A stretch of DNA of 64,000 nt from a virus (lineage: Duplodnaviria; Caudoviricetes). The notes below the pieces were generated by a model that saw only the letters and a program-made list of their open reading frames with translations, made no database searches and was not told the origin of the DNA. Location of the stretch: IMG/VR virus record IMGVR_UViG_3300010885_080481; one strand, given 5' to 3'. The first letter of the stretch is position 1, and the number at the start of each line of letters is the position of its first letter. Shown here piece after piece: positions 4,782 through 28,529 of this stretch. Position numbers and translations under genes: made by a program.

Positions 4782-5069
4782 ATGAAGCTAACACGCCGCC
4801 ACCTCCGCACCATCATCGATGAGGTCATCACAGAGGATCTCAAGAACGTTCGCAGCAGCCACGAGAAGACCATCGCCGGCACAACCGCGCTCCGCAAGAT
4901 GCACGACGCCCCCGGCGTTCTCGATGCGCTATCGAAAATCACTGACCCCAAAGAACTGGCTCAGGTCATAGAAGCCATCATCGACGCAGTTCCCATGGTC
5001 AAACGCGGAGACGTCCTAGCGGCTCTGGCGAAGGTGACACGTCATGAACGCACCACACACAGGTTCTAA
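4782..5069 (+). CDS. hypothetical protein with capsid-targeting-like N-terminus
   Basis: MKLTRRHLRTIIDEVITED leader shared with several late genes. Confidence 0.75.
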   Translation: MKLTRRHLRTIIDEVITEDLKNVRSSHEKTIAGTTALRKMHDAPGVLDALSKITDPKELAQVIEAIIDAVPMVKRGDVLAALAKVTRHERTTHRF

Positions 5070-5070
5070 C

Positions 5071-5169
5071 ATGCGCCTCGACAGATCACATCTCGTGGCC
5101 TTCCTCGAAGGCACTGTCCTCGGGGTCATCTTCGGCTGGGTGCTGTGGTGGGGCCTGCTGCGCGACTGA
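5071..5169 (+). CDS. 32-aa membrane mini-protein
   Basis: MRLDRSHLVAFLEGTVLGVIFGWVLWWGLLRD, starts 1 nt after the upstream stop. Confidence 0.55.
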   Translation: MRLDRSHLVAFLEGTVLGVIFGWVLWWGLLRD

Positions 5170-5174
5170 GACGC

Positions 5175-5345
5175 AAAGGGGCCCGATAAAGACGGCGCAA
5201 GGCCGGGGGCTGGGGGTTAAAAGGCTGTAAAAGGGCCCCTAATTTAGGTGGGGGGCCGGCCCCTAAAATAGGCCCCTTTCGGGCCTAGGGGCCCCCCGGC
5301 CATTTATAGCATTTTCTGTGGGCTTTCTAGGGCCTCCGGGGGGCG
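5175..5345. repeat. GGCC/palindrome-rich non-coding boundary element
   Basis: CCTAATTTAGG 5238-5248, GGGGCCGGCCCC 5252-5263, TAGGCCC-CTTTC-GGGCCTA 5269-5287, GGGGCCCC 5288-5295, several G-runs. Confidence 0.6.
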
Positions 5346-5432
5346 CTAAGGTCGTTCGCGCGACTCGAGAAATTTTGAGATCAAAACGGTACCTTCTCCT
5401 GTCTCGTGGAGGCACATCAGCCTATTTAGATC

Positions 5433-5615
5433 GTGTTGGACCTGAAGCCCGGCGATCTATGCACCTATCTAGACGATGGTGATACGCCGCGGGTCCTGTT
5501 GTCACGGGTCTTGATGTTCCTCTATGTAAATCCGAAGCATTCCGATGAAGGCATGTTCCTGTGTAATGATGGGTCGCTCGACGAGGAGTACTTCGTGTTC
5601 CTGAGGCGCCTGTGA
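5433..5615 (+). CDS. small hypothetical protein (KPGDL-type)
   Basis: GTG start; LKPGDL N-terminus typical of small SH3-like phage proteins. Confidence 0.55.
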   Translation: MLDLKPGDLCTYLDDGDTPRVLLSRVLMFLYVNPKHSDEGMFLCNDGSLDEEYFVFLRRL

Positions 5616-5751
5616 CCGAGTTCCGGAGCGAGGGAAAGATCCCTCGCGGCCGTCGTGCTCGAAATTTCTCGGGAATTTTTTCGTATCGAAATCGACCGTT
5701 GTTCTTTGGTGGGATGATGCGTACCATGGATGGCGAGGTGATGAGATGCGA

Positions 5752-5847
5752 ATGAGTTACGGCAAGCTGTTCGAGAGGATGTTCGTGACGTCAGTGTTCA
5801 GGTTGATCATTGGAGCGATCTTGAAGCCGTTCCGTCGGCTGCTGTAG
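5752..5847 (+). CDS. 31-aa hypothetical mini-protein
   Basis: MSYGKLFERMFVTSVFRLIIGAILKPFRRLL. Confidence 0.4.
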   Translation: MSYGKLFERMFVTSVFRLIIGAILKPFRRLL

Positions 5848-5999: not shown

Positions 6000-6935
6000 A
6001 TGGCCCTAGGTGTCTGTTGTCATTGGATTAGGCATGAAGTTGCGCCGCGGAGCGGCAAATCGCAAGTCATCAACGAATTGGATGAGAGAACCTTGCAATT
6101 GGGTCGATACGAACGAGGTTCTTATGCTGAGGACTCGATTCGTTCGTTGTATCTGCACAATGTTCGAATGTTGCGAGATGTGTTGCGGAAGGTTGCGGCG
6201 AGTGGCGTGCGGTTGTTCCGCGTGTCATCCGCGATGTTTCCGTTGAGTGATCGCGTTCCTCGAGGGTTGTGGGACAACGAGGTCGTGAAGCGCGAGTTGA
6301 TGTTGTGTGGCGAGGTGGCACGGAAGCATGGCATTCGGTTGACGACTCATCCGGGTCAGTTCTGCGTGTTGTCATCAGATTCTGATTCCGTGGTGGAGAA
6401 GGCCGTTGTCGAGCTCGAGCATCATGCCTGGATGTTTGATTCCATGGGGTTGCCGAGGAGCCCTTACGCTGCGATCAACGTGCACGGTGGCAAGTCAGAT
6501 CGAGTTTCACGGTTGATCGATGCGATTCGATCTTTGCCTGAGGCGTCGAGGTCGAGGTTGACGTTAGAGAATGACGAGACGTGTTATTCGTTGGTGGACC
6601 TGTTGCCGGTGGCTCTCGAGACGGGCGTTTCTCTCGTTTGGGATTCGCATCATCACGTGTTCAACGATGGTGGATTGGACGGCGCAGAGGCTGCAGATGC
6701 AGCCGATGAGACGTGGCCTAAGGGAGTGAAACCTCTGCAACATATCAGTAACACGGAACCGGGTATGGAAGGCGGTTCATTCACCGAACGTCGGAAACAC
6801 AGCAACATGATTCATTACGTGCCAGAAATCCAGCTCGAGCGCCTCCGGCGCGATGCTGTGGACGTTGAAGTCGAGGCCAAGTTGAAGAATTTGGCGGTGT
6901 TCGATATGTCAAAGAAATTTAGTATTCCTTTGTGA
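6000..6935 (+). CDS. uvsE: UV DNA damage endonuclease (UVDE family)
   Basis: FRVSS.MFP, RLTTHPGQFCVLSS, INVHGG, LTLENDE, WDSHHH, HIS, VEVEAK motifs. Confidence 0.92.
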   Translation: MALGVCCHWIRHEVAPRSGKSQVINELDERTLQLGRYERGSYAEDSIRSLYLHNVRMLRDVLRKVAASGVRLFRVSSAMFPLSDRVPRGLWDNEVVKRELMLCGEVARKHGIRLTTHPGQFCVLSSDSDSVVEKAVVELEHHAWMFDSMGLPRSPYAAINVHGGKSDRVSRLIDAIRSLPEASRSRLTLENDETCYSLVDLLPVALETGVSLVWDSHHHVFNDGGLDGAEAADAADETWPKGVKPLQHISNTEPGMEGGSFTERRKHSNMIHYVPEIQLERLRRDAVDVEVEAKLKNLAVFDMSKKFSIPL

Positions 6936-7298: not shown

Positions 7299-7300
7299 AG

Positions 7301-8352: not shown

Positions 8353-8355
8353 TTT

Positions 8356-9334: not shown

Positions 9335-9341
9335 GTCACTC

Positions 9342-11800: not shown

Positions 11801-11872
11801 GGTCCCATCGTCTAACGGTTAGGATACGTGATTTTCACTCACATAATCGGGGTTCGATTCCCCGTGGGATCG
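11801..11872 (+). tRNA. trnE: tRNA-Glu (anticodon UUC), CCA not encoded
   Basis: Acceptor GGTCCCA/TGGGATC, D-arm GTCTAACGGTTAGGA, loop TT-TTC-AC, T-arm CGGGGTTCGATTCCCCG. Confidence 0.92.
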
Positions 11873-11875
11873 CTG

Positions 11876-12435: not shown

Positions 12436-12506
12436 GTTAATCCTGTGGCAACAATAAACGTATATATCTATGTAGCAACAAAAAGAAGTTTCATTTCACG
12501 TAATGC

Positions 12507-12915: not shown

Positions 12916-13356
12916 TCAAATCCCGCTGATGGTGCAGCTACCAGAAGCAGCCATGACTAAAAATGATCTTCCATCGCTTATAAGAGAAACTGATTTATTT
13001 GTTCCTGTTTCTAAAGTTAATTTGCTACCTTGGTTATTAGGCGTTGTTCCTGCCATGCCAGCAAATACTTTCGTGCCACCAGTTTCTTGAGAACCTGTTA
13101 GATTGTGGGGGGATCCGTCTGAAGTACGAAACACGAATACTCCTCCTGGAACAGACGACGCGAGTGGCATGATCCAAGTGGTGGCGAAGTCGTAATTTAA
13201 GTCGTATGCGCCAGGTCTCGTTATATTTCCTGGGTTAGTTTTCAATGAAACTCTTACCGTAGGAAGAGAACTCATAGAAATAGAAGAATTTATTTGTAAT
13301 CCAGATCCTTCCTCTTCTACTACCCCCCTTGAATCGTCGATAGTTATTTTAGACAT
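12916..13356 (-). CDS. putative virion structural protein, paralog 1
   Basis: MSKITIDDSRGVV..GSGL; near-identical C-terminus to 13377-13817. Confidence 0.7.
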   Translation of the reverse strand: MSKITIDDSRGVVEEEGSGLQINSSISMSSLPTVRVSLKTNPGNITRPGAYDLNYDFATTWIMPLASSVPGGVFVFRTSDGSPHNLTGSQETGGTKVFAGMAGTTPNNQGSKLTLETGTNKSVSLISDGRSFLVMAASGSCTISGI

Positions 13357-13376: not shown

Positions 13377-13817
13377 TCAAATCCCGCTGATGACGCAGCT
13401 ACCAGAAGCAGCCATGACAAGGAATTTATTTCCGTCGCTGATAAGTGCGACGGAAGACCCTTGGACATTTTCAAGAGCTAGTGCGCTGCCTTCGTTAGCG
13501 GGAGTAGCACCTGCCATGCCAGCAAACACTTTCTTACCGCTAGTTTCTTGAGAACCTGTTAAAACGTGAGCGTGAGCTGAAGCACTTCTAAAAACGAAAG
13601 TTCCTCCGGCGACTGAAGACGCAAGAGGCATCACCCAAGTCAATGCTGAAGAGCCAGATAATGTATAAACGCCAGGCACGTTCAATGTGCCAGCTGAAGT
13701 TTGTGATGAAACAGCCGTAGTTGGCAAAGAAGTTAGAGAAATTGAAGAATTGATCTGCAACCCTGAACCTGCAGATTGAATGAGACCTTGCGAATCACTA
13801 ATGGTTACTTTTGGCAT
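13377..13817 (-). CDS. putative virion structural protein, paralog 2
   Basis: MPKVTISDSQGLIQSAGSGL; Ser/Gly/Thr beta-rich. Confidence 0.75.
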   Translation of the reverse strand: MPKVTISDSQGLIQSAGSGLQINSSISLTSLPTTAVSSQTSAGTLNVPGVYTLSGSSALTWVMPLASSVAGGTFVFRSASAHAHVLTGSQETSGKKVFAGMAGATPANEGSALALENVQGSSVALISDGNKFLVMAASGSCVISGI

Positions 13818-13870: not shown

Positions 13871-15250
13871 TTAAATAGGATTTTGGTTAATAATTCCTGA
13901 AATCCATGGTCCCGTATAAAATTCTTCAACTCTGCGTCTATCACCTTTGGCAACAGTAAAGGCGACGGCAGCTCCGGCAGATGAAGATGTAGTATTTGCA
14001 GATTGGTTGGGCACATCATTACCTGTCGTCGGGTCGAACCCTAAAATAGATCCGTCGGCTTTTACTCCTCCAAACCATCCTGTTTTAGTGTATCCATTAC
14101 CCATTACATACAACCAATTTGAATTACCGGGGGTTCCATCAGGCCATCCTCCTCGTTCGAGCGGTGTCTTTGGAGTATCTCCATGGACTGTGATGACTAC
14201 GTTGTCGGCAAGGGTCTTTCCTGAACATGTTGGATCGGGTGTTGCTGCAAGGTCATTCATGAACTCATCAAGGATGAGTCCTAGATGATTCACTGTGGCA
14301 AGTAGGGTTCCCATGTCAGCAAATGCTCCGTGAGGATCGTCTCGCATGACAGGAAGTGCCACGCAAGATGTGAGACCTAACTTGAAAGCCTTCGATGTGG
14401 TGATGAGAGTCTTTGCCAACTCACGTAGCTTATTAGGCGTAGAGTCTACAACGCCGTATCTCATTAGGTCATCTTGGGTTGGTTCCAAGAGTGCTGCCAG
14501 GTTTTTTCCAAGGAAGTTTGCACTCTTCTTTCCGATGTCTAGAGGACGTTGAACAGTTGGCCTAGTAGCAGCTGTATTTAGACCGAGGAATGTCTTGTAG
14601 TATGCCTCAAAGAGTTGTGCATCGCTCTCTACTTCGAGGATAGATCGGCTTGCGGCGCTGTTGAACAACTGAACCATGCCATCCGCGTTTCCTACCGTGG
14701 CAAGTTGAGGTGCACCAGGCGCAGTCCCGAATGCAAGAGGTGTAATGCCGATGACGGGAAGAAGCGTTGGATTTGCCCTTTGAACGGAAGAGCAAACTGC
14801 CAGCATGCTTTGACCTGCTCCTACCGACGCGGCAGATCCAGGTGTAGGTGTGTGGGTCTGGTTAGTACCTGCCATGAATGCAGAGATCCTCTTCAATTTA
14901 TCTCTTTTTGTCCACGGTGATTGTGGAACATGATACAATGTCTTATCGGTGTCTGTGGCTTTAAGCTGTTGTCCCTGGGCATGGAATGCGAAATTATTAT
15001 TGGTTGATGTGGCTACTTCATTGTGAGGCCATAATAACTGGAACCATGCGAATCCACCATCACCTGCCACGAGATGAACTGATCTCATTGTGGTTGAGCA
15101 TGAGGCCTCGTCCGCCATCGCAGAACCTGCAGAATCGCTAATAACATTTAACACTTGTGATCGATCGAGGGCCAGAGCTGCGCCTGCGGCTGCGGTCCAC
15201 TTTAGGAATCTTCTTCTTGATTGTCCACGTAGATCTTTTAGGTTTGACAT
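13871..15250 (-). CDS. Tat-exported DUF1501-like protein
   Basis: SRRRFLK twin-arginine signal; overall pattern (GG.AWF...RDDPHG...VHGDTPK) resembles bacterial DUF1501 proteins; start reassigned to ATG 15250. Confidence 0.7.
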   Translation of the reverse strand: MSNLKDLRGQSRRRFLKWTAAAGAALALDRSQVLNVISDSAGSAMADEASCSTTMRSVHLVAGDGGFAWFQLLWPHNEVATSTNNNFAFHAQGQQLKATDTDKTLYHVPQSPWTKRDKLKRISAFMAGTNQTHTPTPGSAASVGAGQSMLAVCSSVQRANPTLLPVIGITPLAFGTAPGAPQLATVGNADGMVQLFNSAASRSILEVESDAQLFEAYYKTFLGLNTAATRPTVQRPLDIGKKSANFLGKNLAALLEPTQDDLMRYGVVDSTPNKLRELAKTLITTSKAFKLGLTSCVALPVMRDDPHGAFADMGTLLATVNHLGLILDEFMNDLAATPDPTCSGKTLADNVVITVHGDTPKTPLERGGWPDGTPGNSNWLYVMGNGYTKTGWFGGVKADGSILGFDPTTGNDVPNQSANTTSSSAGAAVAFTVAKGDRRRVEEFYTGPWISGIINQNPI

Positions 15251-15260
15251 TGTTTTCCTT

Positions 15261-15989
15261 TCACTCGCAAGAATGTGCTGCGGATAGCAAAGTTGCGATT
15301 GCGATTGCTTGACCCTTTTCAGGAGTTGATGCATTAATGACCAAGTCAGTACAAATCGCAAGGTGTTGTTGCGTGGCAGGTTTTCCTAAGAGACACGTCA
15401 CACCAGCCTCCAAACACCAACCATTCTCATCAAAGATGGGTGCTCCGACGCCTGACTCCTGACACTGTGCCATAGATGGAAGTGCAGCAATGATTTCCGG
15501 TGCCGCTTGAACGAAGATGTCGAATTGCTTCGCTGCGCCTGAAGATGTCCATACTGTCGTCTCACCAACTCGTGCATCATAGACAGCAGCGCCCAACGGG
15601 CCTGTTCCGTCATTCAACAATTGTCCTGCTGTCGGAGGATCTCCTGTTGCTGATAGATTAACACCGAAATTTTCTAGAATATTTCGTAATGTCGCAACTG
15701 GAATCTTCTGACAGGAATGCAACCTCGTCCTGATCTCCGGCGGGCCCTCATCCTGACGTTGGGCGAGCACCTCCAAGGGATCCTTGTTTCCGTCTTCACC
15801 TAGTCCTGACATATGATCGAAAGTGTTGTCTTCGCTGCCCGTGTAATCGTCAGGAGGCGGAGGTTCCTCAGGTGGTGGGTCTGTTTTGGGATCTTCGACA
15901 GGTGGTAGGAGACCATCAGGTGTATCTAGACCGCAGGATAGGCTAAGGAAGGCCAATGGGAGGCTCAAGAATAATCTTTTGTAATTCAT
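15261..15989 (-). CDS. putative lipoprotein of DUF1501-like operon
   Basis: Signal peptide ending SLSC, Pro-rich linker, several Cys; AGGA upstream. Confidence 0.7.
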   Translation of the reverse strand: MNYKRLFLSLPLAFLSLSCGLDTPDGLLPPVEDPKTDPPPEEPPPPDDYTGSEDNTFDHMSGLGEDGNKDPLEVLAQRQDEGPPEIRTRLHSCQKIPVATLRNILENFGVNLSATGDPPTAGQLLNDGTGPLGAAVYDARVGETTVWTSSGAAKQFDIFVQAAPEIIAALPSMAQCQESGVGAPIFDENGWCLEAGVTCLLGKPATQQHLAICTDLVINASTPEKGQAIAIATLLSAAHSCE

Positions 15990-16006
15990 ATGATGTTTTT
16001 CCTGCT

Positions 16007-17179
16007 TCAAAAATTTACAAAATCATCGTGCTTCAACATGAAGCGGAGAGTCTCTTTCACATTCATCCCCGTGGACTCGAACTTTTCCACGAGGGGATCG
16101 AGGACTTCAGGAGGAACAGTGGCGAGATCGTTGACGACATCCTCCTTCGACATGACCATGTTCCACAGGCGAGTCGTGACGCAGTCAGCAATGATAGGAT
16201 CATCAGCAATTGCTGCGCCAAATGCTGGGAGATCATCAGCCTCGCTTCCAAAGCGCCATGCCGTCTTTTCGCCAGAAGAAAGCCAATGTTCTACTTCAGT
16301 CGTCACCGGTTCCGGAAGCACGGGTGTGCTCACTGAGCTCTCTCCCACCCACATGCCTTCGGCATCGAAGTTAGCGAATAGAGGAGCGATGTGGTTCATC
16401 GTCGCGTGACAGTTCGCACACACTACAGACTGTGTATCCCGGAAATTGATGGGAGAATCCGAGATAGATTCGAAAGGCCAAGGAGACACGTAATCCTTAC
16501 CGTCCACGACAGTGGGCTTATCAACTGACTCGGCGGGAAATTTCTGGCACGCAAAGACTTCCTGGACCCACCTGACCCGACGGAAGGCCATGTTGCTGTA
16601 GAAATGCTTCATCGTGCCTGGGTTGGTGAGGACCCCTGCGTGAACAGGTACAGCGTTTTCACACTCCCCGTCGACAAAGTCTCCATTCTCAAAGGTAGGA
16701 CACGTGTTCGTGGTGGCCGTGAACACATCGGTGAAAGGACTACCATTTACTGAGATTCTTGCGGCGAGGACGGGTGAATGATCCATCATCTCAGAACCGC
16801 CTTGACGCATCGTGTCGCGCCAAAATTTCACCATGCGAGCTTGAAATCGCGAATCATCAATCATTTCATCAACGATTGATTCATACTCTGATTTCTTATT
16901 TTGAGCATTCTGTAGCCTGCGAATAGTCTCTAAAGTAGGTAAAGTTCTAGTTAGCTTTAATGATGCAGTTCTTAGAGCTTCTTCATAGCTTAGTTTTCTA
17001 TCGTCTAGTGTGGTTTTTTCAGGGGCTTCGCCTCCTGAACCAGCACCTGAAGAAGTCGTGTTGTCGGTTGATGAAGATCCTTGTCCTGAAGAGTTATGTT
17101 CGTTTAATCCTTCAGGAGTTGAAGCGCAACCAACTCCGCATAAGATAAGAATCGTTAAGATTTTTTTTGACATCACCAT
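16007..17179 (-). CDS. putative heme-c-binding lipoprotein (DUF1549/DUF1585-1592-like)
   Basis: Signal ending GVGC, S/G linker, CANCH (CxxCH) motif, GVLT.PG, C-terminal L...F...G.NVKE..R. Confidence 0.7.
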   Translation of the reverse strand: MVMSKKILTILILCGVGCASTPEGLNEHNSSGQGSSSTDNTTSSGAGSGGEAPEKTTLDDRKLSYEEALRTASLKLTRTLPTLETIRRLQNAQNKKSEYESIVDEMIDDSRFQARMVKFWRDTMRQGGSEMMDHSPVLAARISVNGSPFTDVFTATTNTCPTFENGDFVDGECENAVPVHAGVLTNPGTMKHFYSNMAFRRVRWVQEVFACQKFPAESVDKPTVVDGKDYVSPWPFESISDSPINFRDTQSVVCANCHATMNHIAPLFANFDAEGMWVGESSVSTPVLPEPVTTEVEHWLSSGEKTAWRFGSEADDLPAFGAAIADDPIIADCVTTRLWNMVMSKEDVVNDLATVPPEVLDPLVEKFESTGMNVKETLRFMLKHDDFVNF

Positions 17180-17386: not shown

Positions 17387-17941
17387 TCACGTTACGATCG
17401 TGAGCGGATCATTGGTCACCGCATGGAGGAACCAGTGGCTGCCGTTGCAGACGACTTCCATGAAATCTCCTCCTTGAAGGGCTACGCCGAAAGCAACGGA
17501 TATTGCAGCAGAGACCTGCTGACCTTCGGCCGCGGAGGCGGCTCCGTTATTCGTGTTGATGGCGTTGCCGTAGATCTTTGCGGAGCCGACGGGAACTTGG
17601 ATCTTGTGGGCATATGCAGCACCAGCATACATCTTGAAGTGAAGTCCTTGGGCAGGCGCTGGAAGCGTGAACGTCTGAGCAGACCCTCCATCAGCTATGA
17701 GAATGGCTCCGCTCTCTGCTGAAGTGAGTACGACACCGGCTGAGATGATCTGTCTACGGCCGCCTGTCTGAGTGACGCCGGCCATCGTGAGGTAGGTACC
17801 GCTGAGTGTGGTGTTTCCTCCAACAGCTAGGTCATTTGTAAACGTGGTGTTTCCCGTTGTAGACAACGTACTTGAAATTTCGACGCCAGAACCCGTGCTC
17901 TGAACCAATCCTTGCGAATCATTAATTGTAACTTTTGGCAT
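17387..17941 (-). CDS. putative virion structural protein, paralog 3
   Basis: MPKVTINDSQGLVQSTGSGV N-terminus shared with 12916 and 13377. Confidence 0.75.
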   Translation of the reverse strand: MPKVTINDSQGLVQSTGSGVEISSTLSTTGNTTFTNDLAVGGNTTLSGTYLTMAGVTQTGGRRQIISAGVVLTSAESGAILIADGGSAQTFTLPAPAQGLHFKMYAGAAYAHKIQVPVGSAKIYGNAINTNNGAASAAEGQQVSAAISVAFGVALQGGDFMEVVCNGSHWFLHAVTNDPLTIVT

Positions 17942-18399: not shown

Positions 18400-18660
18400 C
18401 TATTCTGCCGCCATGGGAAATTCTGCATGTGCAGACATATCTACGGCCCATTTGTCACATGCTTCATGCGCCTTGTTTACCAAATCATTGCAAGCTTCTT
18501 CTAACGTCATACCACTTGTGAGAGCAGCATCTAGGTAGCTCATCATTGCTGCAATCAATTCATCAGAGTTTACTTCGACAGATTCGACCAATTCTTTCTT
18601 GTTGATGCTAAGATATTCCTGTTTTATTAAATTGCGCAGTTGAGATGGTGATAATTTCAT
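18400..18660 (-). CDS. hypothetical protein with capsid-targeting-like N-terminus
   Basis: MKLSPSQLRNLIKQEY leader; ATAATTA immediately upstream. Confidence 0.7.
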   Translation of the reverse strand: MKLSPSQLRNLIKQEYLSINKKELVESVEVNSDELIAAMMSYLDAALTSGMTLEEACNDLVNKAHEACDKWAVDMSAHAEFPMAAE

Positions 18661-18744
18661 AGAGTTAATTATCATGTTCTCAAAGCAACATTTCGTAAAA
18701 TTGTATAAAACGTTATAAAGTAGAGACAATACTTAGCTGTAAGT

Positions 18745-19980
18745 ATGAAAAAAATTTTGCTAGAAAAGTTCATTAAAAATTATTTGCTGTTAGAAGCCAA
18801 GAATTCTGGTTTGTTGAGGCTAATTGATGAACTTTACGTCATGAATGACAAACTCAACTTGAGTGAAGAAGAAAAATTTAAAAAATTGAAAAATGAAATA
18901 TCGATGTATTTGGGGCCGAAAGCTCCTGCAGGATCATCTAGAATAGTTTTTCCTCTTGATTCAGGCAGCGTCATTAAGTTAGCTCTTAATCCTGCAGGAT
19001 TTGCGCAAAATGGTACTGAGGCCATGGCAGGATCCGATGAGTCAGTCTCTGCTATCATAAACCCTGTCATCGCAAAGAGCAACGTCGTAGAATACGACGG
19101 GTTTTTTTGGATCGTTCAAGAGAAGGTATTACCGCTTAATGACGATTTGACTGGTTCTAAAAACTGGTCTTATTTTCAGAACCTTTTGATGAAAGCTACC
19201 AGAGGTGCTCATTCAATCACGCCTGATAAAGGGGAGTTTTCTACAGCTGTTGATGTGGAAAAAACAAGAGTAGAAATTCCGCTCGGCGGGGCAAAAAAAC
19301 TTCAGGCACTGAAACCTGTGAATACGAAGGAAGTAGAAGAGGAAAAAGCTAGAAAGCAGATCTCAGATGCTTTTAAAAAAGTTGGACCTGAATTTTTTGA
19401 ATCTTTCAGGGAATTCTTAAACAAGTACTCAGGATCTAGAACAGGCGATCTTTTTAAACCTGACTCTTGGGGAATGACGTCTGACGGTAGGCTGAAGTTG
19501 ATAGATTATGGATACACCAAAGGAATATCCGACAAGTTCTACGATAGAGGTTACGTGTTGGATCAAACAGAGATAAAAAAGAGGCTCGATGCGGCGCAAC
19601 AACGAAGAGAAGAAAATATAGACTCAACTGTAGCCGATAATGAGTATATGCTTATGAACGTCAACAACGTCCCTCCCTTGATGTCTCTGTTGCTTCTAAT
19701 AAAGGGCGTCGTGATTGGTCTTCCACGCAGAGTTGAAGAGTTTGAGGTCGGAAAAACGCTTTCTAATCTCACAGAAACTGAAAAAACTTCAGTGGCTAGT
19801 TTGATCAGGAATAAGCAAGAAATTATCGAAAAAATTATTAATCAAGTATCAAACACGCAATTAAAAAATAAATTGTATGATGAACTGGATGAAATCCTGT
19901 TGTCAACAGGATCTTTAGGTAAAACTGAATCTTTGATCAGACTTCTAGTAAAAGAAAGCCTCCGCGCAAGAATGAGATAA
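18745..19980 (+). CDS. protein kinase-like fold protein A
   Basis: AGSSRIVF loop, VIKLA Lys, QNGTE, WIVQEKV hinge, GDLFKPDSWG, LIDYG. Confidence 0.7.
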   Translation: MKKILLEKFIKNYLLLEAKNSGLLRLIDELYVMNDKLNLSEEEKFKKLKNEISMYLGPKAPAGSSRIVFPLDSGSVIKLALNPAGFAQNGTEAMAGSDESVSAIINPVIAKSNVVEYDGFFWIVQEKVLPLNDDLTGSKNWSYFQNLLMKATRGAHSITPDKGEFSTAVDVEKTRVEIPLGGAKKLQALKPVNTKEVEEEKARKQISDAFKKVGPEFFESFREFLNKYSGSRTGDLFKPDSWGMTSDGRLKLIDYGYTKGISDKFYDRGYVLDQTEIKKRLDAAQQRREENIDSTVADNEYMLMNVNNVPPLMSLLLLIKGVVIGLPRRVEEFEVGKTLSNLTETEKTSVASLIRNKQEIIEKIINQVSNTQLKNKLYDELDEILLSTGSLGKTESLIRLLVKESLRARMR

Positions 19981-19983: not shown

Positions 19984-20820
19984 TCAACCTTTACCTGACT
20001 GCTTCGGTTCCCATTTTTTCACGTCTCTACGCAACGCTGAAGCTGCATCAAAAAATATCACTTCTCCCTCACCGCCGCGGACGCGTCGAATTCCCATGTT
20101 GTCAGGTTTGAAGTCAACCATCCCTAATTTGTAATGCGATAAAATACCTTTTACGAATCTTTGAAACCAATCAGGAGATAGTCGGTACCTCTCTTCAATT
20201 GACTTCAATTCTGCTTCTGGTAATAAAGGGATCAATTCGTTTGCTAGTTGTTGCGGATTTCTATCAGCAAATTTAACAGGAGGCTGTCCTGTAGACTTGG
20301 CACGTTTTTGTTCTTGCCCGACGATCGTTGCGATACCATCTGAGATGGATCTCCATAACAATTTCCACTCAGGATCCTCACCTAGAGAGCTTGCTTCTGA
20401 CACCTTCTCGACAATAGACCACCCTATCGGTCCTGCGTTGCTTGTAAATACGCCTGTGTCTAATACGTTAGGTAGACCTGAACCAATTTCGCTTCCTGAA
20501 TATAAGACATCTTCAATCTCAGATGCTCGAGGAGTTCCTGGTTCTAGTTTTAGAACTAGATTTCTTCCCAACGAGAACGCTGTACCTTGTCGACCTGATC
20601 CCAAATACTTGACGTTACCTTTAGACAGAATTCTGTTCCAATCTACAAAGTTATCAGGTTCTGCTGAAAAAGCGTCAACGTCTAATCCCATGCGCTTAAA
20701 GACTTTGGATTTCATTAATTCATCTCTTATCATACCCATTTGCAATTCAGATAATTCTTGAGATATGTTTAATGATTCTACTAGAATATTTTTAATGAAT
20801 TCTCTAAGTAATAACGACAT
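19984..20820 (-). CDS. protein kinase-like fold protein B (Ser/Thr type)
   Basis: YLGSGRQG Gly-loop, VLKLE, SIVEKV, VDFKPDNMG catalytic loop, IFFDA. Confidence 0.78.
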   Translation of the reverse strand: MSLLLREFIKNILVESLNISQELSELQMGMIRDELMKSKVFKRMGLDVDAFSAEPDNFVDWNRILSKGNVKYLGSGRQGTAFSLGRNLVLKLEPGTPRASEIEDVLYSGSEIGSGLPNVLDTGVFTSNAGPIGWSIVEKVSEASSLGEDPEWKLLWRSISDGIATIVGQEQKRAKSTGQPPVKFADRNPQQLANELIPLLPEAELKSIEERYRLSPDWFQRFVKGILSHYKLGMVDFKPDNMGIRRVRGGEGEVIFFDAASALRRDVKKWEPKQSGKG

Positions 20821-21100: not shown

Positions 21101-21342
21101 CGTACTGCGGTAGGTGCATCGTGTCGTCTTTGCCTTTTTCGAGGTCCGTGGCCTTTAAGTATCACACGGATCGCAGGAATATTCGCGAATATTGTCCCCA
21201 GGTTTCCCGCATCGCGTATTTCCGACCATTTCTCTGGCGGAACTCTATGCTGCTCCTCGAACAACACGTCTCTTTCCTGCTCATCAATCCGTGGACCACC
21301 ACATCAATGTTGAGGGCAATATATATATGCATGAACGCCGAC

Positions 21343-21471
21343 ATGAAGTTATTGAGGACATACCTAGCCAACGTCATCAGAGAGGTGGCAGAGGTACGGA
21401 CCAAAACCGACGTGGTGGCAAGAGCTTACTTCTTGAATTTCTTACGTGTGTTCGCAAGGTCGATGCCATAA
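21343..21471 (+). CDS. 42-aa protein with capsid-targeting-like N-terminus
   Basis: MKLLRTYLANVIREVAEV; ATATATATA upstream. Confidence 0.45.
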   Translation: MKLLRTYLANVIREVAEVRTKTDVVARAYFLNFLRVFARSMP

Positions 21472-22388
21472 CGTTTGGACAGAGCACCTGACTTGAGACG
21501 AAGAATGTTATGCCAAGACATCAGCTTCTTAGCAAGATCATCCGAAACATAATCTTTTCGACCCAGCTTACCCAACTCTGGGTCACCCGCCATCGTTTTA
21601 ATAAACCTCTTCACCACAGCGTTGACAAACTGTATGGGTGTGACAGGCGCATCTCCTTGGCCTTCGTATGATCCTCGACCGACGACATTCTTCATGGCAT
21701 TGAGGAAGCCATCCTGGACGTTAGCAGGCAGGGCAGCCGGCTCGTTTCCTCCAATCTCATCAGCCATGTCTGGAAAATACTGCGTGATGAGCAACTCATC
21801 AAACTGAGAACCATAACGGTTGAAGAAATCCTTCACCACATCCATCACAGGCTTGGGCTTCTTGTCCAATCTGTTACCGATGGAAACTGTGATATTGGAG
21901 TCGTCTCCTCCCACTCTCTTCGCTTGATCCAGACCCGACTGGACCCAATAGACCATGATCTCATAGAGGTTGTCGTTCATCTCTGGGCGGTCTGGATCAC
22001 GACCCTGAAACTTGAAGCGCTTGTAGGCACCCTTCATCGTGGCCTCGTGAAGCAGGGCATGGATGACGTCACCGCTGAAAGCCTCATCGATATAGTCGTC
22101 GGCGCACAGGGTCAGCAGGCCCGACTGTCCCTTGCTAAGGAATCTTTTTGTGTAGAAACCACCGGTCTCAAAGATTTCATCAAACTTTTGCACTGCAAAA
22201 GCCGTGAATTCAGCATCCATGGCCTTCTCGTCATCTGTCAACGGTGGACGAAGAACACCATAGTGACCGAAAGGTGTGACGTCGTCCATCTTTTTGGTAC
22301 CGGAGGCGAACTCAGGTGTGGACTTGGAGATCTCAGAGACGAGAACCTCGTGAATCAAGGACCGAAGTTGAGAGAGTCGTATCTTCAT
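21426..22388 (-). CDS. hypothetical protein with capsid-targeting-like N-terminus
   Basis: MKIRLSQLRSLIHEVLVSE; ATATTTA upstream; 320 aa. Confidence 0.78.
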   Translation of the reverse strand: MKIRLSQLRSLIHEVLVSEISKSTPEFASGTKKMDDVTPFGHYGVLRPPLTDDEKAMDAEFTAFAVQKFDEIFETGGFYTKRFLSKGQSGLLTLCADDYIDEAFSGDVIHALLHEATMKGAYKRFKFQGRDPDRPEMNDNLYEIMVYWVQSGLDQAKRVGGDDSNITVSIGNRLDKKPKPVMDVVKDFFNRYGSQFDELLITQYFPDMADEIGGNEPAALPANVQDGFLNAMKNVVGRGSYEGQGDAPVTPIQFVNAVVKRFIKTMAGDPELGKLGRKDYVSDDLAKKLMSWHNILRLKSGALSKRYGIDLANTRKKFKK

Positions 22389-22481: not shown

Positions 22482-23297
22482 CTAGGGCTGCTCCTCGAAC
22501 AACACCTCGAACCGCCAACCCTTCTTCTCACAGAATCGGGCCGCAGCCTCCCACTTGGCCTCATCAATCTCGTCGTGGCGACCCTTCACCTCGTAGAGGG
22601 TACGGTCTTCTGGTGCGTAGAAGTCTGGGACGTAGGTCCGCTGGGAGCCGTCTGGATGGGTATAGGGGATGGTGATGCCATGTGACTTGGTGACATGGTA
22701 ACCTTTGGTAATTGCCGCCTCAAGGAACGACGTTTCCCAGGAAGAATGCATGAACTCCTCCTGTCCGGTGAACGGATTGAACTTCCACTCAGTCTTGAAA
22801 GGAGCATGGGGACCGATGATGCCGGCCTCGAGGAGCTTGACAGCCCGAGCGGAGGCTTCTTTGCGGAGCAGAGAGGCGAAGGGTGAAGAGGACCAGAAGC
22901 GAGCCATTGCTTCTGACTTTTTTCTTTGAACTTCTGGTGTTAGTGTTGCTTGGTTCATTAGTCTACCTTTTTTAAAAGCAACATCTGGGTGTTTACTCAT
23001 CCATCTTTTCATGTTTTCAGAGTTTTTCTTGCCTATCTTCGCTTTCTCCTCATCAGATTTGATTCTACCATGTGCGTGGTGACCGTGGATAAATCGTGTA
23101 AAATCCTTTAGGGAAACATTCCAATTGTTTTTTCCATTGCATCCACATGAGCACAAGGGTATGCAGTTATTGTATTTCCATTTCAGCACATATTCTTGAG
23201 ATGACATCTTGTGGCATCTTAAGTGTCTAAAAACAAATTCCTTTGATTCAAATTCCTGTTCGCACTCTTTACAAAAATTATCTATTTCACTTGACAT
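22482..23297 (-). CDS. free-standing homing-type endonuclease: C2H2/CGC Zn motifs, NUMOD3-like segment, TnsA-like PD-(D/E)XK domain
   Basis: CKEC..H...H, CSCGC, SSWE, YVPDFY, YEVKG, KWEAAARFC. Confidence 0.8.
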   Translation of the reverse strand: MSSEIDNFCKECEQEFESKEFVFRHLRCHKMSSQEYVLKWKYNNCIPLCSCGCNGKNNWNVSLKDFTRFIHGHHAHGRIKSDEEKAKIGKKNSENMKRWMSKHPDVAFKKGRLMNQATLTPEVQRKKSEAMARFWSSSPFASLLRKEASARAVKLLEAGIIGPHAPFKTEWKFNPFTGQEEFMHSSWETSFLEAAITKGYHVTKSHGITIPYTHPDGSQRTYVPDFYAPEDRTLYEVKGRHDEIDEAKWEAAARFCEKKGWRFEVLFEEQP

Positions 23298-23398: not shown

Positions 23399-25288
23399 TC
23401 AAATTATATTCATATCCAAAACTGTGACCGTGCCGTAGAAGTCCGAGCGGACCATCTTCTTACCGTAGCGGGTCATCACGCCCTTACGCGGTGTGAAGTC
23501 CTCTGGTGCGAAGATTGTTGGTGTCACGATGAGTGGAACGTATGGTGCGTATACGTAGCCTGTCTCGAGGTAGCTGCCACCCTTGTAGCCAACGAGGATC
23601 TTGTTACGTGGGAAGTAAGGATCCTTGTAGACTGTGAAGCGGTTGCTGACCGTGCCGATTGCCTCTGCACCGATCGTGAATGGTGAGCCAACCTGGCCTT
23701 CTCCATCGATCGAGTACTTGGGCTTGTAGAGAACTGAACTCTCGAGGATGGTTGCAACGTCTGGGCTTGTGACCATGAAGTTTGCAGATCCGCGGAGTGT
23801 CTTGCGGTGGATTGTGTTTGCCACGTCGATGACTGTCTCGACGAGGGTCTCGTACCACTCGCGAACCGTACCCGTGAATTGTGGTCCGATCGAGAGGCTA
23901 GATGCGAGAGTGACTGGCGAGCCTGTTGTCTTGTTGACGAAGCGACCTGGTGCGCGGCTCCAATAGAAGTTGGCGCCGTTGGCCTGTGTGACGAGGTCGT
24001 TGAGGATCTCGCGGTCGATCTCAAGGGCGATCTGCTCTGAGAGGATCGAGGTTAGCTCAACCTCAGCGTCCATGCTGTGGTAGGCGTTGAGGTCCTGTGC
24101 GAGCTCTGGAGACCAGCGGGCACGGAGCTTGCGGGTCGTTGCAGTGATTGCAATTGACTCAATCTTGATGTCGATTTCTGGAATTGCAGGCTGCGGTGTT
24201 GCACCGAAATCAGATTCGAATGATGGAACGGTAAGTGTTGCTCCGCTTGCGCTATCAACTGTGAGACCTGCCTTGAGAGCGAATGAGAAGCGACCGTTTG
24301 AAGCTGCGCTAACCGCGAGGCTTGCACCATCTGCACCCTTGACTGCCATCTGAACGTGTGTACCGTTGAGTGGATCTGGTGTGAATGATACTGCGCCACC
24401 GTTGTACACGAAGTTTCCGCGCTTGTTGAGGCGGCGGAGGTTGAGTACGCCAGAACCACCTTGGAATGCTTCACCCCATGCTGTCGCGTTTGTTACACCA
24501 CCGAAGAGAGCGATGCTATCGACTGCAAGTAGGTCGGCTGCTGCGTTGGCCGTCGTGAAGACCGATGCAGAGACGTAGAGGAAAGAAACGTCGCCGGTGT
24601 TGTTTGTGACGAAGTTTTCAACCTGTGGATCGAAGTCAAGGTAACGAGCGTTGCTACCGCTGAAGTCAGTTGCGGCGGCGAGCTCGTGGCCTGCTAACCA
24701 CGTATCAGCAGCTGAACCTGCCCAGGCGCCGAGAGCGACTGCAGCTGTTGTCATTGCAGCTGATGTTGTCGATCCTGTGACCCTGGAGTAGCTTGTGCCG
24801 ACGAGGTCATACATACCACCTGCTGCTAGAGATCCGCTCTGGACTCCTTTGCCTGTGGGGTTGTTGTAGATAGACTGTCCTCTTGTGAAGACAGCGTCAC
24901 CAGATGTTGGTGTTCCTACGTTCGTGCCGTATGTGTAATCAAGATAGAAGATGAGTCCTGAGGGGAGGCTCATTGGCTGGATCGAAACGAGCTCGTTTGA
25001 AACGAGGCCGCCGAACACTCTACGAACGATTGGGAATGCAATGTTTGTGAATCCCTGGATCTGTCCGCTTGATGTAACGTTACCGCCACCTGTTGAGAGG
25101 CTGTTGCTCTCTTTGAGTACCTGTGCTGCCTGGTTCTCGAGGAGCTGTGCCATTACTTCGCGGCGTGTTCCATCGAGGCCGCGGAGGAGGCCTGTGCGGC
25201 TCCATTTCTCTGTAAGACGGGCGCGCTCAGCGCCGACGTGACGCTCCTTGATGCCCTGTGCAAGCTGATCAATTGTAAAAGATTTCAT
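23399..25288 (-). CDS. major capsid protein (T4 gp23-like)
   Basis: KWSRTGLL.GL, LLENQA, FPIVRRVF..L, VSIQPM.LPSGLIFYLDY, IPEIDI, TRKLRARWSPELAQDL.AYH, EIDREIL, YAPYVPL, PRKGVMTRYG. Confidence 0.97.
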   Translation of the reverse strand: MKSFTIDQLAQGIKERHVGAERARLTEKWSRTGLLRGLDGTRREVMAQLLENQAAQVLKESNSLSTGGGNVTSSGQIQGFTNIAFPIVRRVFGGLVSNELVSIQPMSLPSGLIFYLDYTYGTNVGTPTSGDAVFTRGQSIYNNPTGKGVQSGSLAAGGMYDLVGTSYSRVTGSTTSAAMTTAAVALGAWAGSAADTWLAGHELAAATDFSGSNARYLDFDPQVENFVTNNTGDVSFLYVSASVFTTANAAADLLAVDSIALFGGVTNATAWGEAFQGGSGVLNLRRLNKRGNFVYNGGAVSFTPDPLNGTHVQMAVKGADGASLAVSAASNGRFSFALKAGLTVDSASGATLTVPSFESDFGATPQPAIPEIDIKIESIAITATTRKLRARWSPELAQDLNAYHSMDAEVELTSILSEQIALEIDREILNDLVTQANGANFYWSRAPGRFVNKTTGSPVTLASSLSIGPQFTGTVREWYETLVETVIDVANTIHRKTLRGSANFMVTSPDVATILESSVLYKPKYSIDGEGQVGSPFTIGAEAIGTVSNRFTVYKDPYFPRNKILVGYKGGSYLETGYVYAPYVPLIVTPTIFAPEDFTPRKGVMTRYGKKMVRSDFYGTVTVLDMNII

Positions 25289-25339: not shown

Positions 25340-27241
25340 TCACTTAGCTATGCCTGCGAGTTTTGCCCAACGTTCGGACTCAAAACCTTCGTTGAGTGTT
25401 TGTGCTGATGCCGAACGTGTCGCCTGTGAAGAAGATCCAAGAACGCGGCCTTCTGTCACAGTCTTACGAGGCGTTGCCAATGTCTTGGCAAGGCTTTCGT
25501 ATACAAGCTTCACTTCACGAAGCGTCTTTGCTTCATCCAACTGCTCAATAACCTGCGATTTCTGACGCGCGGTGAGAGCTTCTGACTGTAGCAATTTGTT
25601 TGTGAATATGAGCTTAGCGTTGAGCAGATTCGTTTCTGCCAACTTGTTGCGGAGCTGTGAATCGCCTGAGCTCGCGACAGGTTTTGCGACGTTATTTGAA
25701 CGACGCTCTGTGCGGAGGGCCTCTGAGAGGTCTCCTGAAAGTTTGTTAAAACGTTTGACTGATTCATTGTAACGTTTTGCAAAGTTTGTGTATGCTTGTT
25801 TGAAGTTAACGCTAGATGCGTTGATCTCTTTTCGTTCAGCAAGCGTCTTTGCTTTTGAGAACTTTGTTTTTGCTGATTCATAGAGGCTTGCGGCGGTTCT
25901 AGCCTTGTTTTTTAATACCTCTTGAAGTTTAAGTTCTTTAGCCATGTTACGACGAAGAGATTCACACTTAGCTGCTTCATCCTTCTCTTCCTCTTTTTCA
26001 TTCATGCCTGGTGAATCGCCCTGCTTCTTTGTCTGCGAATAATCTTCGCGGCGCTTCATGGCTGCAGGTGATGAATCTGTTCTGTCTCCTGCTTCTTCCA
26101 TATCAAGCTCTAAAGCAAGTTCATCAAGTTCGTTTGCATAAGACTCGTCTGCTTTTTCTGAATCATCTTCAGCTTCTTCATCAGAACCTTTTGTCTCTAA
26201 TGCTTCGTCAGTTTCTGAAAGAGTTACATCTAGTGGTTCTCCTTCAGAATCAGCATCGCCAAAATCATCAAACTCATCAGAGCCTGGTTTTGTTCCGTCG
26301 ACAGAAGGAACTTTTTCTTCTCTAAGAGTTCTCATACGAGCAATTTCTCGACGAAGCATATTTTCATCGATTTCGACAATAACATTATCAGAAAGCTTAC
26401 GAGATTCCATCTTAGAATCCATGCTTCCTTCAAGGTCAAGATCTTCCTCGCCTGATTCTTCTTCCTCGTCACCTTCCTCGCCACCTTCTGCGCCGCCTTC
26501 TGCGTCGCCGAGATCGAGATCTTCCTCATCTGATTCTTCTTCCTCACCACCTTCTTCACTCTCTTCGCCTCCGGAGACCAAATTGACTCCAAGGCTTTCG
26601 AGATCGATGTCGTCAGGAAGGCCTGTCAATTCCAGGCTGATTGTTTCTTCATTTAAACGACTATTTCTCTTCTTCATTTTAATCTCCTGAAGCTTTTCAA
26701 TTTTTTTCAAACAATTTTGTAATTTAAGATTATATCCTAGTTTTTGTGTAGGACTATCAGCATTTTCGTTAATAAAATCATACATTGTGCTGACCAATGT
26801 TGATAGTTCATTTACCTTGTTGGTAAAAATCTCAGAGTTTTTTTCGTTCAATTCGATAGAAAGCAGCTTATTCGCTAGTTCAGAAACATAGCGTAACTTT
26901 CTTTCGACTGCGGGTAATACTTTGCCACCAAACTCAAAATTTTCTTCTACGCTAGAATCTTCTTTAGCATCAGCTTCTTCTGCTGGTTCTTCTAACGCCT
27001 CGACAACTTCTTCTTCCACGGCTTCAGGTACGTGAGATTTGTTGTCTTCAGGTTCATCAGTTAAAATCTTATCGTCTTTTTCCTCGACTTCTTCAGCTGA
27101 TTCACCTAACAGTTCTTTTTCAATCAGCTCACGAATGCGAGGCGCGACGGCTTCGATAACTGCTCTTTTAGCGTTATCTTCTGCAATTTCTTTTAACTTT
27201 TTAACATCTGCTATTGCTTCTTCGTAGAGCTGCTTTGACAT
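25340..27241 (-). CDS. prohead core/scaffolding protein (gp22-like)
   Basis: Very acidic coiled-coil protein directly upstream of capsid gene; NLLNAKL.FTN, W.KLAGI end. Confidence 0.85.
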   Translation of the reverse strand: MSKQLYEEAIADVKKLKEIAEDNAKRAVIEAVAPRIRELIEKELLGESAEEVEEKDDKILTDEPEDNKSHVPEAVEEEVVEALEEPAEEADAKEDSSVEENFEFGGKVLPAVERKLRYVSELANKLLSIELNEKNSEIFTNKVNELSTLVSTMYDFINENADSPTQKLGYNLKLQNCLKKIEKLQEIKMKKRNSRLNEETISLELTGLPDDIDLESLGVNLVSGGEESEEGGEEEESDEEDLDLGDAEGGAEGGEEGDEEEESGEEDLDLEGSMDSKMESRKLSDNVIVEIDENMLRREIARMRTLREEKVPSVDGTKPGSDEFDDFGDADSEGEPLDVTLSETDEALETKGSDEEAEDDSEKADESYANELDELALELDMEEAGDRTDSSPAAMKRREDYSQTKKQGDSPGMNEKEEEKDEAAKCESLRRNMAKELKLQEVLKNKARTAASLYESAKTKFSKAKTLAERKEINASSVNFKQAYTNFAKRYNESVKRFNKLSGDLSEALRTERRSNNVAKPVASSGDSQLRNKLAETNLLNAKLIFTNKLLQSEALTARQKSQVIEQLDEAKTLREVKLVYESLAKTLATPRKTVTEGRVLGSSSQATRSASAQTLNEGFESERWAKLAGIAK

Positions 27242-27267
27242 TTCAAAAATTCTCCGTAATTCAAATA

Positions 27268-27762
27268 TTAGGTTGTTGAGTCAGACGATCCCATTTTAGG
27301 TTTATTTCCTAAAACAAAAGCTGCAATCTTCTTTGCATGCTCAGCAGGAGATCTAGTACCTGTTGAAGGTCCGCCAGGTACGTACGATGGTTTAATATCC
27401 GTTGCTTTAATTCCAGGATCTGAATTCTTGTCTGTACCATCGGTTTTTCCAGGGCCAGGCGAAGATAAATCAGGCGTAAATGAGTTAGCAGGATCACCTG
27501 GATTTTTCCAAGCTCCATCGGCTCCCGCTAGAGTATTTGGTGCCTCTCCGTAATTTAAATTTACGCCTGGACCAAAATACGTATCTCCAGGTTGTACAGT
27601 GGGCATTAAATACTGGTTTCCAGCATTTACCACTAGTTCTCTATAGTCTTTTTCTTTTCCAACAAAGTTACTTGTTGGTGATGCAGGAAACAACTTGCCC
27701 AAAAGTAAATTTTTTTCATTGGACTCCGGTGCGTAAACTGTATATTTTCCTTGTCCAGGCAT
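27268..27762 (-). CDS. hypothetical head-module protein
   Basis: Pro/Gly-rich ORF within the head cluster, with SD. Confidence 0.7.
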   Translation of the reverse strand: MPGQGKYTVYAPESNEKNLLLGKLFPASPTSNFVGKEKDYRELVVNAGNQYLMPTVQPGDTYFGPGVNLNYGEAPNTLAGADGAWKNPGDPANSFTPDLSSPGPGKTDGTDKNSDPGIKATDIKPSYVPGGPSTGTRSPAEHAKKIAAFVLGNKPKMGSSDSTT

Positions 27763-27794
27763 AGCGTTTCTCCTTACTAATTGAGGTTAAGATT

Positions 27795-28034
27795 TCACTT
27801 TTTGCGAAGTAAAGTCATTTTTAATTCGCGTATTTTTTCTAAGCGCTTGGTCAATCTAGATTCTTCTAGCCCAAGTGCCTTATAATAATTAAACTGATTC
27901 TCTAAAGAATCTGCAAATTCATCAGCATCAACTTCATCTGCTTCTTTAGCAGCATCTTTTGTGCTCTTTTCGGCTTTAAACTTTGCCATTTCTTCAAGAA
28001 CGATTTTTTTGAGTAAAGATGAAGTTAATTTCAT
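27795..28034 (-). CDS. small head-module protein with capsid-targeting-like leader
   Basis: MKLTSSLLKKIVLEE. Confidence 0.7.
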   Translation of the reverse strand: MKLTSSLLKKIVLEEMAKFKAEKSTKDAAKEADEVDADEFADSLENQFNYYKALGLEESRLTKRLEKIRELKMTLLRKK

Positions 28035-28091
28035 AATTGCATTTCCTTTTTTAGAAATATAATGCTAATTATTACACTCTAGACAAAACGA

Positions 28092-28529
28092 TTAAAATTT
28101 CTTTGGAGTGTCAGCAAAAGCCAAGGTGGCCCATTTTGAAGCTGCCTCGTCGCCGAATATATCTTCTGGTGCATTCGATGCCACTATGTTCTCGATTGTG
28201 CCGACAGGCGCTACAGCATTTTTGTTACTTTCGTTCATTAGCATATTGGGTAAAGTCGTAGAAGCAGTGTCGGCAAGAATAGCCGCTAGAACAGGATCTC
28301 CTTTAGATTCTGCCTTTATTACGTCATTCAATCTTGACTTCGACAATAAGTCATGCTGAGTTTGTGAAGAATATTTGACGTGATCTCTTGGAGATTTATT
28401 GGCCGAGCGAGCTTGCGAATGTTTTGAGATTTCTTCTTTTAGCCTTTCAGGCCGACCCATGCCTTCGGCTAATATTTCGACCAAACATTCTTTTATAATT
28501 TGTTTTAACTCTGATCTAGATAATTTCAT
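28092..28529 (-). CDS. head-module protein with capsid-targeting-like leader
   Basis: MKLSRSELKQIIKECLVEILAEG. Confidence 0.75.
   Translation of the reverse strand: MKLSRSELKQIIKECLVEILAEGMGRPERLKEEISKHSQARSANKSPRDHVKYSSQTQHDLLSKSRLNDVIKAESKGDPVLAAILADTASTTLPNMLMNESNKNAVAPVGTIENIVASNAPEDIFGDEAASKWATLAFADTPKKF

Follow-up and report, generated by a model that had tools for sequence, protein, structure and literature searches.

Mullaney and Black reportedly described, in 1996, the capsid targeting sequence (CTS) of the phage T4 internal proteins IPI, IPII and IPIII, which is removed by the prohead protease gp21. The internal proteins are a diverse set with only this CTS of 10-19 amino acids in common, and they are cut at L/I-x-E (PMC9026906, PMC3012670). 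Ten N-terminal residues are enough to package IPIII; processing needs positions 8 and 10, and an Asp at position 10 of the CTS blocks cleavage, not targeting (PMC9026906, PMC3012670). As read from NC_000866, IPII and IPIII start with MKTYQEFIAE/A and IPI with MKTFKEFTSTTTPVSTITE/A (throughout, a slash marks a known or candidate cleavage point). In phiKZ, 201phi2-1 and SPN3US, a gp21-like protease cuts many head proteins after Glu, at S/A-x-E (PMC5694885, PMC7411985). The present analysis concerns a short N-terminal leader on unrelated proteins of the IMG/VR record IMGVR_UViG_3300010885_080481, a 64,000-nt stretch (the window) of an uncultured freshwater T4-like jumbo phage. This leader is best read as a T4-type capsid-targeting propeptide that would be removed by the prohead protease, a reading to which sequence comparison lends a probability of about 0.65. 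The literature offered the T4 and giant-phage precedents, and no description of the present leader was found in it.

The first-pass annotation had proposed one leader on about nine proteins. All nine N-termini exist, with the right coordinates and strands, and six of them form a single class (class 1), starting at 4782 on the plus strand and at 12435, 18660, 22388, 28034 and 28529 on the minus strand. The open reading frames (ORFs) at 18745 and 20820 belong to a second class, and the one at 21343 is doubtful. The class-1 consensus is M1 K2 [LI]3 [TS]4 x x [QE]7 L8 [RK]9 x [IL]11 I12 x E14 E15 [LVI]16, with MKLTxSQLRxIIxEE as typical form. A profile scan, the check suggested along with the claim, clearly separates the six members from background: in the six-frame translation of the window they score 21.5-31.5 bits, against 4.2 bits for the next-best match and 7.0 for the best reversed control.

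An exact 44-base match to the window was sought among viral contigs, and no identical contig turned up, so that the comparison was made with relatives. For this, the protease was used as query. It returned at least 500 related IMG/VR stretches, of which 80 (78-99% identity) were kept, among them G004, a complete relative of 297,894 bp with terminal repeats. To avoid circularity, a model (A1) was made from the six window leaders alone. It gave 9-21 matches in each of five related contigs, nearly all from model position 1, and 18 matches in LR756508.1, a 484-kb phage. Matches in Flavobacterium phage immuto were only weak, and A1 detected no class-1 leader in Rhodothermus phage RM378, Prochlorococcus phage P-HM2 or Microcystis phage Mel-JY01. 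An iterated scan with a threshold of 10 bits (reversed controls at most 7.4) found six leaders in the window, 18 that start with Met and three without a start Met in G004, and 23 (plus two) in the relative G001; 47 of these 52 matches begin at Met. The relatives have 18-23 class-1 genes per genome of ~280-300 kb, and the lineage has about 20-25 leader proteins per genome, plus a few of class 2. Among 1.84 billion representative proteins, 3,631 match a profile of 41 leaders (E <= 0.001). The S_100 Pfam matches to the leader were spurious, and there is no Pfam family for it.

Residue 8 is Leu in all of 45 leaders compared, residue 12 is Ile in 39 and residue 14 is Glu in 33. That the leader ends in (I/L/V)xE, as had been proposed, is borne out: I12-x-E14 is present in 33/45, and [LIVM]xE occurs within 26 residues in 45/45. 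The codons of conserved residues differ among copies (TTA, CTC, CTT or CTG for L8; AAA, CGA, CGC or CGG for R/K9), and those of the leader genes track the local GC of each gene (0.33-0.57). Since the codons vary at conserved residues, the leader is conserved at the protein level, and it is the peptide, not a DNA cassette, that is under selection.

The end of the leader is also seen in the family of the 320-aa protein (alignment A5). Its leader is variable and drifts between class-1-like and class-2-like forms, and the [ILV]-x-E19 at its end is invariant. The conserved body begins directly after it, at I20 (ISKSTPEF). An [ILV]-x-E that stays invariant where leader and body meet, as in this alignment, is what a maturation site would be expected to show. 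In AlphaFold2 models of the 320-aa protein (predicted template modelling score 0.75) and of the 278-aa protein (mean predicted local distance difference test, pLDDT, 82), the leader is a separate low-confidence helix ahead of a well-packed body, covering residues 5-21 in the former (pLDDT 45-55) and residues 3-16 in the latter (pLDDT 55-64). The 320-aa protein had no Atlas lead, and its model had no fold match in the PDB or in the AlphaFold database clusters.

The enzyme that would perform the cleavage is indeed encoded, as the first-pass annotation had stated. The Peptidase_S77 match reaches 93 bits and the catalytic pair is kept: His77 and Ser130 align with His85 and Ser140 of T4, the two positions read as Ala in the crystallised T4 protein (PDB 5JBL). 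The protease is single-copy in every leader-bearing genome tested. In LR756508.1 the Peptidase_S77 match is in two pieces ~1 kb apart within one open frame of 576 aa (156507-158102, plus strand), which suggests an insertion, possibly an intein, in that prohead protease.

Cut sites on the capsid protein and the scaffold, also part of the original claim, are likewise recognisable. The capsid sequence AQVLKE60/SNSLS aligns column for column with GSFLTE65/AEIGG of T4 gp23 and with NELLRE10/S of gp24. Of these, gp23 LTE65/A and gp24 LRE10/S are documented gp21 cut sites (PMC9026906). Because the capsid site aligns with documented cut sites, the L/I-x-E specificity of the protease appears to be retained on the capsid protein. 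The scaffold-like protein has 35 [LIV]xE sites against ~20 expected, and p286, the protein encoded between portal and protease, has 14 against 5.9 expected.

By Pfam and PHROG profile searches, the minus strand of the window carries a T4-type head module in the order portal, p286, prohead protease, 145-aa, 79-aa and 164-aa genes, scaffold-like protein and capsid protein (Table 1). Two class-1 genes are built into this module. The order p286, protease, 145-aa and 79-aa leader genes is kept in 61/61 related loci that extend far enough; in all 61 both leader genes lie between protease and scaffold, and every orthologue keeps its leader. In LR756508.1, leader genes likewise flank the protease. Invariant residues are M1, K2, L3, T4, L8, I11 and E15 in the 79-aa family (alignment A2), and K13, E14, C15, L16, E18, E22 and G23 in the 145-aa family (alignment A3). 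The arrangement recalls T4 gp67 and gp68, in that the 145-aa and 79-aa genes and p286 flank the protease and the 79-aa protein resembles gp67 in its small size and acidity. The small genes follow the protease here, whereas they precede it in T4. Neither the 79-aa nor the 145-aa protein had a PHROG or Pfam match, or a sequence match to gp67, gp68 or Alt. The latter is, in T4, an enzyme that is packaged and trimmed by gp21. Within p286, the Glu of the class-2-like segment is replaced by Asp in many orthologues.

Behind the leaders stand unrelated bodies, just as had been claimed: BLAST sorts the 49 leader-bearing bodies of the window, G001 and G004 into 36 clusters, of which only a handful are common to all three. 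Among the eight leader proteins of the window, only the one with the 411-aa body gave a significant Pfam or PHROG match (phrog_4301, of unknown function), and nine of ten larger bodies from relatives have no Pfam match. One leader-bearing body of a relative contains a PAP2 phosphatase domain. This turnover bears on the best-surviving alternative, in which the leader marks substrates or components of the prohead core only, to be degraded or expelled at maturation like T4 gp22, gp67 and gp68 and never delivered to the host. Such a role would suit the two most conserved members, which sit between protease and scaffold, the gp67-like character of the 79-aa protein, and the wealth of [LIV]xE sites in the scaffold-like protein and p286. 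Most members, however, are rapidly exchanged orphans with few internal cut sites in their bodies, and folded enzymes, with a kinase-like fold or a PAP2 phosphatase domain, would be odd as disposable scaffold. A purely core-directed leader is therefore considered unlikely.

The second leader class has the pattern LL(R/K)E(F/Y)(I/V)xxxLxE and is found on the convergent genes starting at 18745 (plus strand) and 20820 (minus strand), which lie outside the class-1 profile. Within the first 15 ORF residues, the pattern occurs ten times in three genomes against 2.2 expected (Poisson p = 1e-4). Both bodies behind it are kinase-like. For the 411-aa body there are kinase-type leads only, namely the T7-kinase and Kinase-PolyVal clusters of the Atlas; its homologues carry other leader variants, all ending in [LV]-x-E. 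The 278-aa body has a protein-kinase-like fold: Foldseek matched its model to APH(2'') and VRK1 (probability ~1.0, E 2e-5), and the Gly-rich loop, the beta3 Lys, the catalytic-loop D-x-K-P-x-N and the metal-binding Asp are all present. In the family alignment (A6) these correspond to the invariant motifs GSG..G.AF (GSGRQGSAF), LK (VLKLE), DFKPDN and FDA (FFDAAS). The two kinase-like bodies have only the catalytic-loop motif in common. In the leader of the 278-aa family, R6, I9 and E15 are conserved in at least 90% of the rows. Close homologues have the class-2 leader, and distant ones have a class-1 leader (MKLTSIQLRSIIKEE...) ahead of a class-2-like segment. Judged from these homologues, the two leader classes are linked via this family.

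The leader is also met inside proteins. The best 150 of the 3,631 profile matches all have at least two leader copies, with the first copy at residue 1 in 139 of them, and 112 of the 195 internal copies still start with Met. One ORF of three leader-body units was confirmed under translation table 11. Tandem ORFs of this kind (P0054 at locus L117:95-1270, P0055, P0060 and P0065) have two to three units, exceptionally up to nine, and a similar two-leader protein is encoded in G004 (193265, minus strand; L090:12342-13265:-). From their sequences they look like fused neighbouring genes or polyproteins. A leader that is tolerated internally suits a module released by a protease better than a signal dependent on a free N-terminus. 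In two homologues of the 320-aa protein (P0010 and P0011), an extra conserved domain of ~100 aa, MI(F/Y)YHG...GWGAE.PGVFLS..., precedes the leader and renders it internal; this domain has no Pfam match.

Taken as a propeptide, the leader would work as follows. The amphipathic N-terminal helix of 14-19 residues, of class 1 or the related class 2, would act as loading tag and dock the protein into the scaffolding core during prohead assembly. The gp21-type protease would then cut after the Glu of the leader-terminal [ILV]-x-E and free the body inside the head. The two small conserved members beside the protease would probably be core components, like T4 gp67 and gp68, and the fast-turning-over orphan bodies, including the two kinase-like enzymes, would probably be cargo that leaves with the DNA. 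Each sequence-level prediction of capsid targeting that could be tested agreed with what was found in the genomes. From this circumstantial pattern we infer core binding, cleavage, presence in the virion and injection of the leader proteins; the weakest of these steps is the last, the 'injected proteome'. When the scaffold-like protein (A4) and the 79-aa leader protein (A2) were modelled as a complex, the score was 0.00, which counts neither for nor against binding.

Several observations weigh against this proposal. The leader-bearing bodies are not basic, unlike the T4 internal proteins. Twelve of the 45 leaders have no Glu at position 14. The class-1 profile scores below 3 bits on IPI, IPII, IPIII and Alt, so that no homology to the T4 tag is detectable with it. 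The head module is distant from most leader genes, which are located in clusters of small orphan genes. A related helix motif also recurs in large metagenomic membrane proteins (12 matched stretches in P0051), and the motif can accordingly exist outside a capsid-loading role.

The last two points are those that speak for a different tag, one recognised by a non-capsid partner such as a modifying enzyme, a chaperone or a localisation factor. With 3,631 matching clusters the motif is very common, and it is an internal repeat in non-phage-like proteins as well. A partner of this kind would leave unexplained both the invariant [ILV]-x-E at the leader/body junction and the fixed place of two members beside the protease, and no candidate gene for it was identified, which makes this explanation distinctly unlikely. 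A radical-SAM maturase was tried as partner and rejected: PF04055 is absent from the complete G004 and from G001, and the control search was positive in 14/14 reference genomes.

A generic amphipathic helix for oligomerisation or for membrane or nucleoid binding, recurrent or spread by recombination without a common pathway, would likewise be short, helical and amphipathic, and a weakly similar helix does occur in the scaffold-like protein (PRIRELIEKELL, residues 34-45). Such a helix would hardly account for the start at Met in 47/52 matches, for the fixed spacing around an invariant L8, for the gap to the reversed-sequence controls, or for one body, that of the 278-aa family, swapping leader classes yet keeping the terminal Glu; it is very improbable. 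A likeness at the nucleotide level, that is, a mobile promoter/start-codon cassette or a translation-initiation element like the 36-base cassettes at 113-4372, is scarcely credible in spite of near-identical promoter cassettes directly upstream of the first leader gene and of an ATATAT box enriched ahead of leader genes, since the gene at 4782 has itself no cassette and the free codon variation at conserved residues rules out a DNA-level cassette.

The PRIRELIEKELL helix is one of two invariant helices of the scaffold-like protein that are akin to the leader core, the other being ENMLRREIARM..LRE (residues 293-309). By the leader profile their likeness is below significance. They hint that the leaders may mimic a self-association helix of the scaffold.

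Compared with the T4 CTS, the leader is alike in being a short N-terminal peptide with a hydrophobic-x-Glu end on unrelated proteins, in a T4-type genome with a Peptidase_S77 protease, a gp23-type capsid protein with a homologous L-x-E and a fast turnover of cargo. It differs in length, with 14-19 residues against 10 for IPII and IPIII (19 for IPI), and its class-1 form has no detectable similarity to MKTYQEFIAE; class 2 (LLREFIxxxLxE) resembles QEFIAE by eye only. In addition, there are two interchangeable leader classes here, and ~20-25 class-1 genes plus a few of class 2 per genome against three internal proteins in T4. The bodies are not basic and include kinase-like enzymes, tandem leader-body fusions occur, and, in contrast to T4, the system is known from sequence alone. 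The leader would thus be a functional analogue or a very diverged relative of the T4 CTS and not a demonstrable homologue. With phiKZ, 201phi2-1 and SPN3US it has in common the large phage and the gp21-like protease, which in those phages goes with a big set of packaged proteins. Propeptides there are often longer than 100 residues and have no common leader, whereas here one recognisable leader would predict the set.

Proteins that are injected with phage DNA act before phage gene expression. Those of T4 include anti-restriction and host-takeover factors and are nearly unrecognisable from sequence. If the leader is a loading tag, a simple sequence rule would suffice to list the first-strike proteins of this lineage, an abundant one of uncultured freshwater phages, and of its relatives. 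The leader would also point to candidate proteins for counter-defence and to enzymes, packaged kinases for example, and foreign proteins could be loaded into capsids with a second tag, one that has no detectable sequence likeness to the T4 CTS. As the principle is known from T4, the gain would be in breadth and predictive power, not in concept. In its widest form the idea is a portable capsid-loading code shared by the T4-like jumbo phages of a large, uncultured aquatic clade. By the leader alone, it would predict the 20-30 proteins per genome that are packaged and delivered to the host, drawn from thousands of metagenomic protein families and including kinase- and phosphatase-like enzymes, with leader-body chains cut by the prohead protease inside the head and two interchangeable leader classes. 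This wider idea is tentative, and we stop short of giving it even odds.

Table 1. Leader genes, head-module genes and upstream boxes in the window (coordinates of the 64,000-nt stretch)
Feature	Position	Strand	Remarks
Class-1 protein, 95 aa, orphan body	4782..5069	+	25.5 bits; MKLTRRHLRTIIDE/VITE/D; GC 0.57
Class-1 protein, 113 aa	12094..12435	-	28.9 bits; MKITESQLRQIIKKE/LLKLNE/A; orthologues keep leader
Class-1 protein, 86 aa, acidic orphan body	18400..18660	-	25.8 bits; MKLSPSQLRNLIKQEY...ELVE/S
Class-2 leader, 411-aa kinase-like body	18745..19980	+	MKKILLEKFIKNYLLLE/A; phrog_4301 2.6e-17
Class-2 leader, 278-aa body, protein-kinase-like fold	19984..20820	-	MSLLLREFIKNILVE/S
Doubtful 42-aa ORF, leader-like start	21343..21471	+	MKLLRTYLANVIRE/VAE/V; ATATATAT box upstream
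Class-1 protein, 320 aa, all-alpha orphan body	21426..22388	-	21.5 bits; MKIRLSQLRSLIHEVLVSE19/ISKSTPEF...
Major capsid protein, gp23 family	23399..25288	-	PF07068 261.7 bits; predicted maturation site VLKE60/S
Scaffold-like protein, 633 aa, acidic, helical	25340..27241	-	assigned by T4 gp22 position and composition only
Class-1 protein, 79 aa, acidic, candidate prohead core protein	27795..28034	-	30.6 bits; conserved head-module gene
Class-1 protein, 145 aa, conserved head-module gene	28092..28529	-	31.5 bits; MKLSRSELKQIIKE/CLVE/ILAE/G; directly after protease
Prohead protease, T4 gp21 family	28566..29174	-	PF03420 Peptidase_S77 93.4 bits (cut-off 27); phrog_207 1e-50; PDB 5JBL 1.5e-15
p286, 286 aa, candidate core protein	29167..30027	-	between portal and protease; class-2-like segment LLYEFLIRTISSSLVE in conserved N-terminus
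Portal, gp20 family	30082..31890	-	PF07230 239.5 bits; phrog_213; start of head module
ATATAT box sites	4761-4781; 12462-12467; 21319-21328; 54115-54120; 61215-61220		

Some details of the individual genes may be added. The gene at 4782 has leader-bearing orthologues in both G001 and G004. The gene at 18660 has an alternative ATG five codons upstream, at 18675. The ORF at 21343, which may be a remnant, was left uncounted because it has no homologue in 82 related sequences and runs into the 3' end of the 21426-22388 gene. For the scaffold-like protein, the PHROG and Pfam searches gave no family match. The capsid protein is longer than T4 gp23 (629 vs 521 aa), with a large insertion after about residue 120 that splits its database alignments in two pieces, and the GC of its gene (0.55) is well above that of the neighbouring genes. 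Its closest database phages are LR756508.1 (uncultured; 49% identity), Flavobacterium phage immuto, Microcystis phage Mel-JY01 and Rhodothermus phage RM378.

In a search for late promoters, only the ATATAT box came out as enriched: 37% of leader genes have it no more than 35 nt ahead of the start codon, compared with 8% of the remaining genes (p = 6e-6). In the window the box is also found ahead of three genes without a leader: a 330-aa gene ending at 54091, a GroEL-like gene ending at 61212 and an endonuclease gene at 6000. The box may be a promoter or operator. At the 4782 gene it is enclosed by GGAGGAT-N7-ATCCTCC, a perfect inverted repeat extending up to the ATG. This gene directly follows 13 cassettes of early-promoter type and has the ATATAT box instead of a cassette of its own. 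The array (107-4393) consists of 13 copies of a ~41-nt cassette (GTGCAAAGTTC...GATATACTAGGACCATG), each ending on the ATG of a mini-gene, and forms a block of 61% GC in a phage with otherwise 30-40% GC.

Another shared N-terminus, M(P/S)K(V/I)TI.DS.G(L/V)...GSG(L/V).I(N/S)S, is found on three paralogous proteins of 146-184 aa (12916-13356, 13377-13817 and 17387-17941, all on the minus strand). They had no PHROG match and bracket a bacterial-looking block of three genes (13871-17179). Between the leader gene at 12435 and a gene for DNA ligase there is a tRNA-Glu gene (anticodon TTC; 11801-11873, plus strand). The capsid gene is adjoined by a gene for a TnsA-like/HNH-type endonuclease (22482-23297, minus strand), which recalls the homing endonuclease segD beside T4 gene 23. 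Further along the minus strand, one ORF of 1046 aa (34877-38017) fuses an SbcD-like nuclease (gp47-like, residues 1-361) with an SbcC-like ATPase (gp46-like, residues 309-1043).

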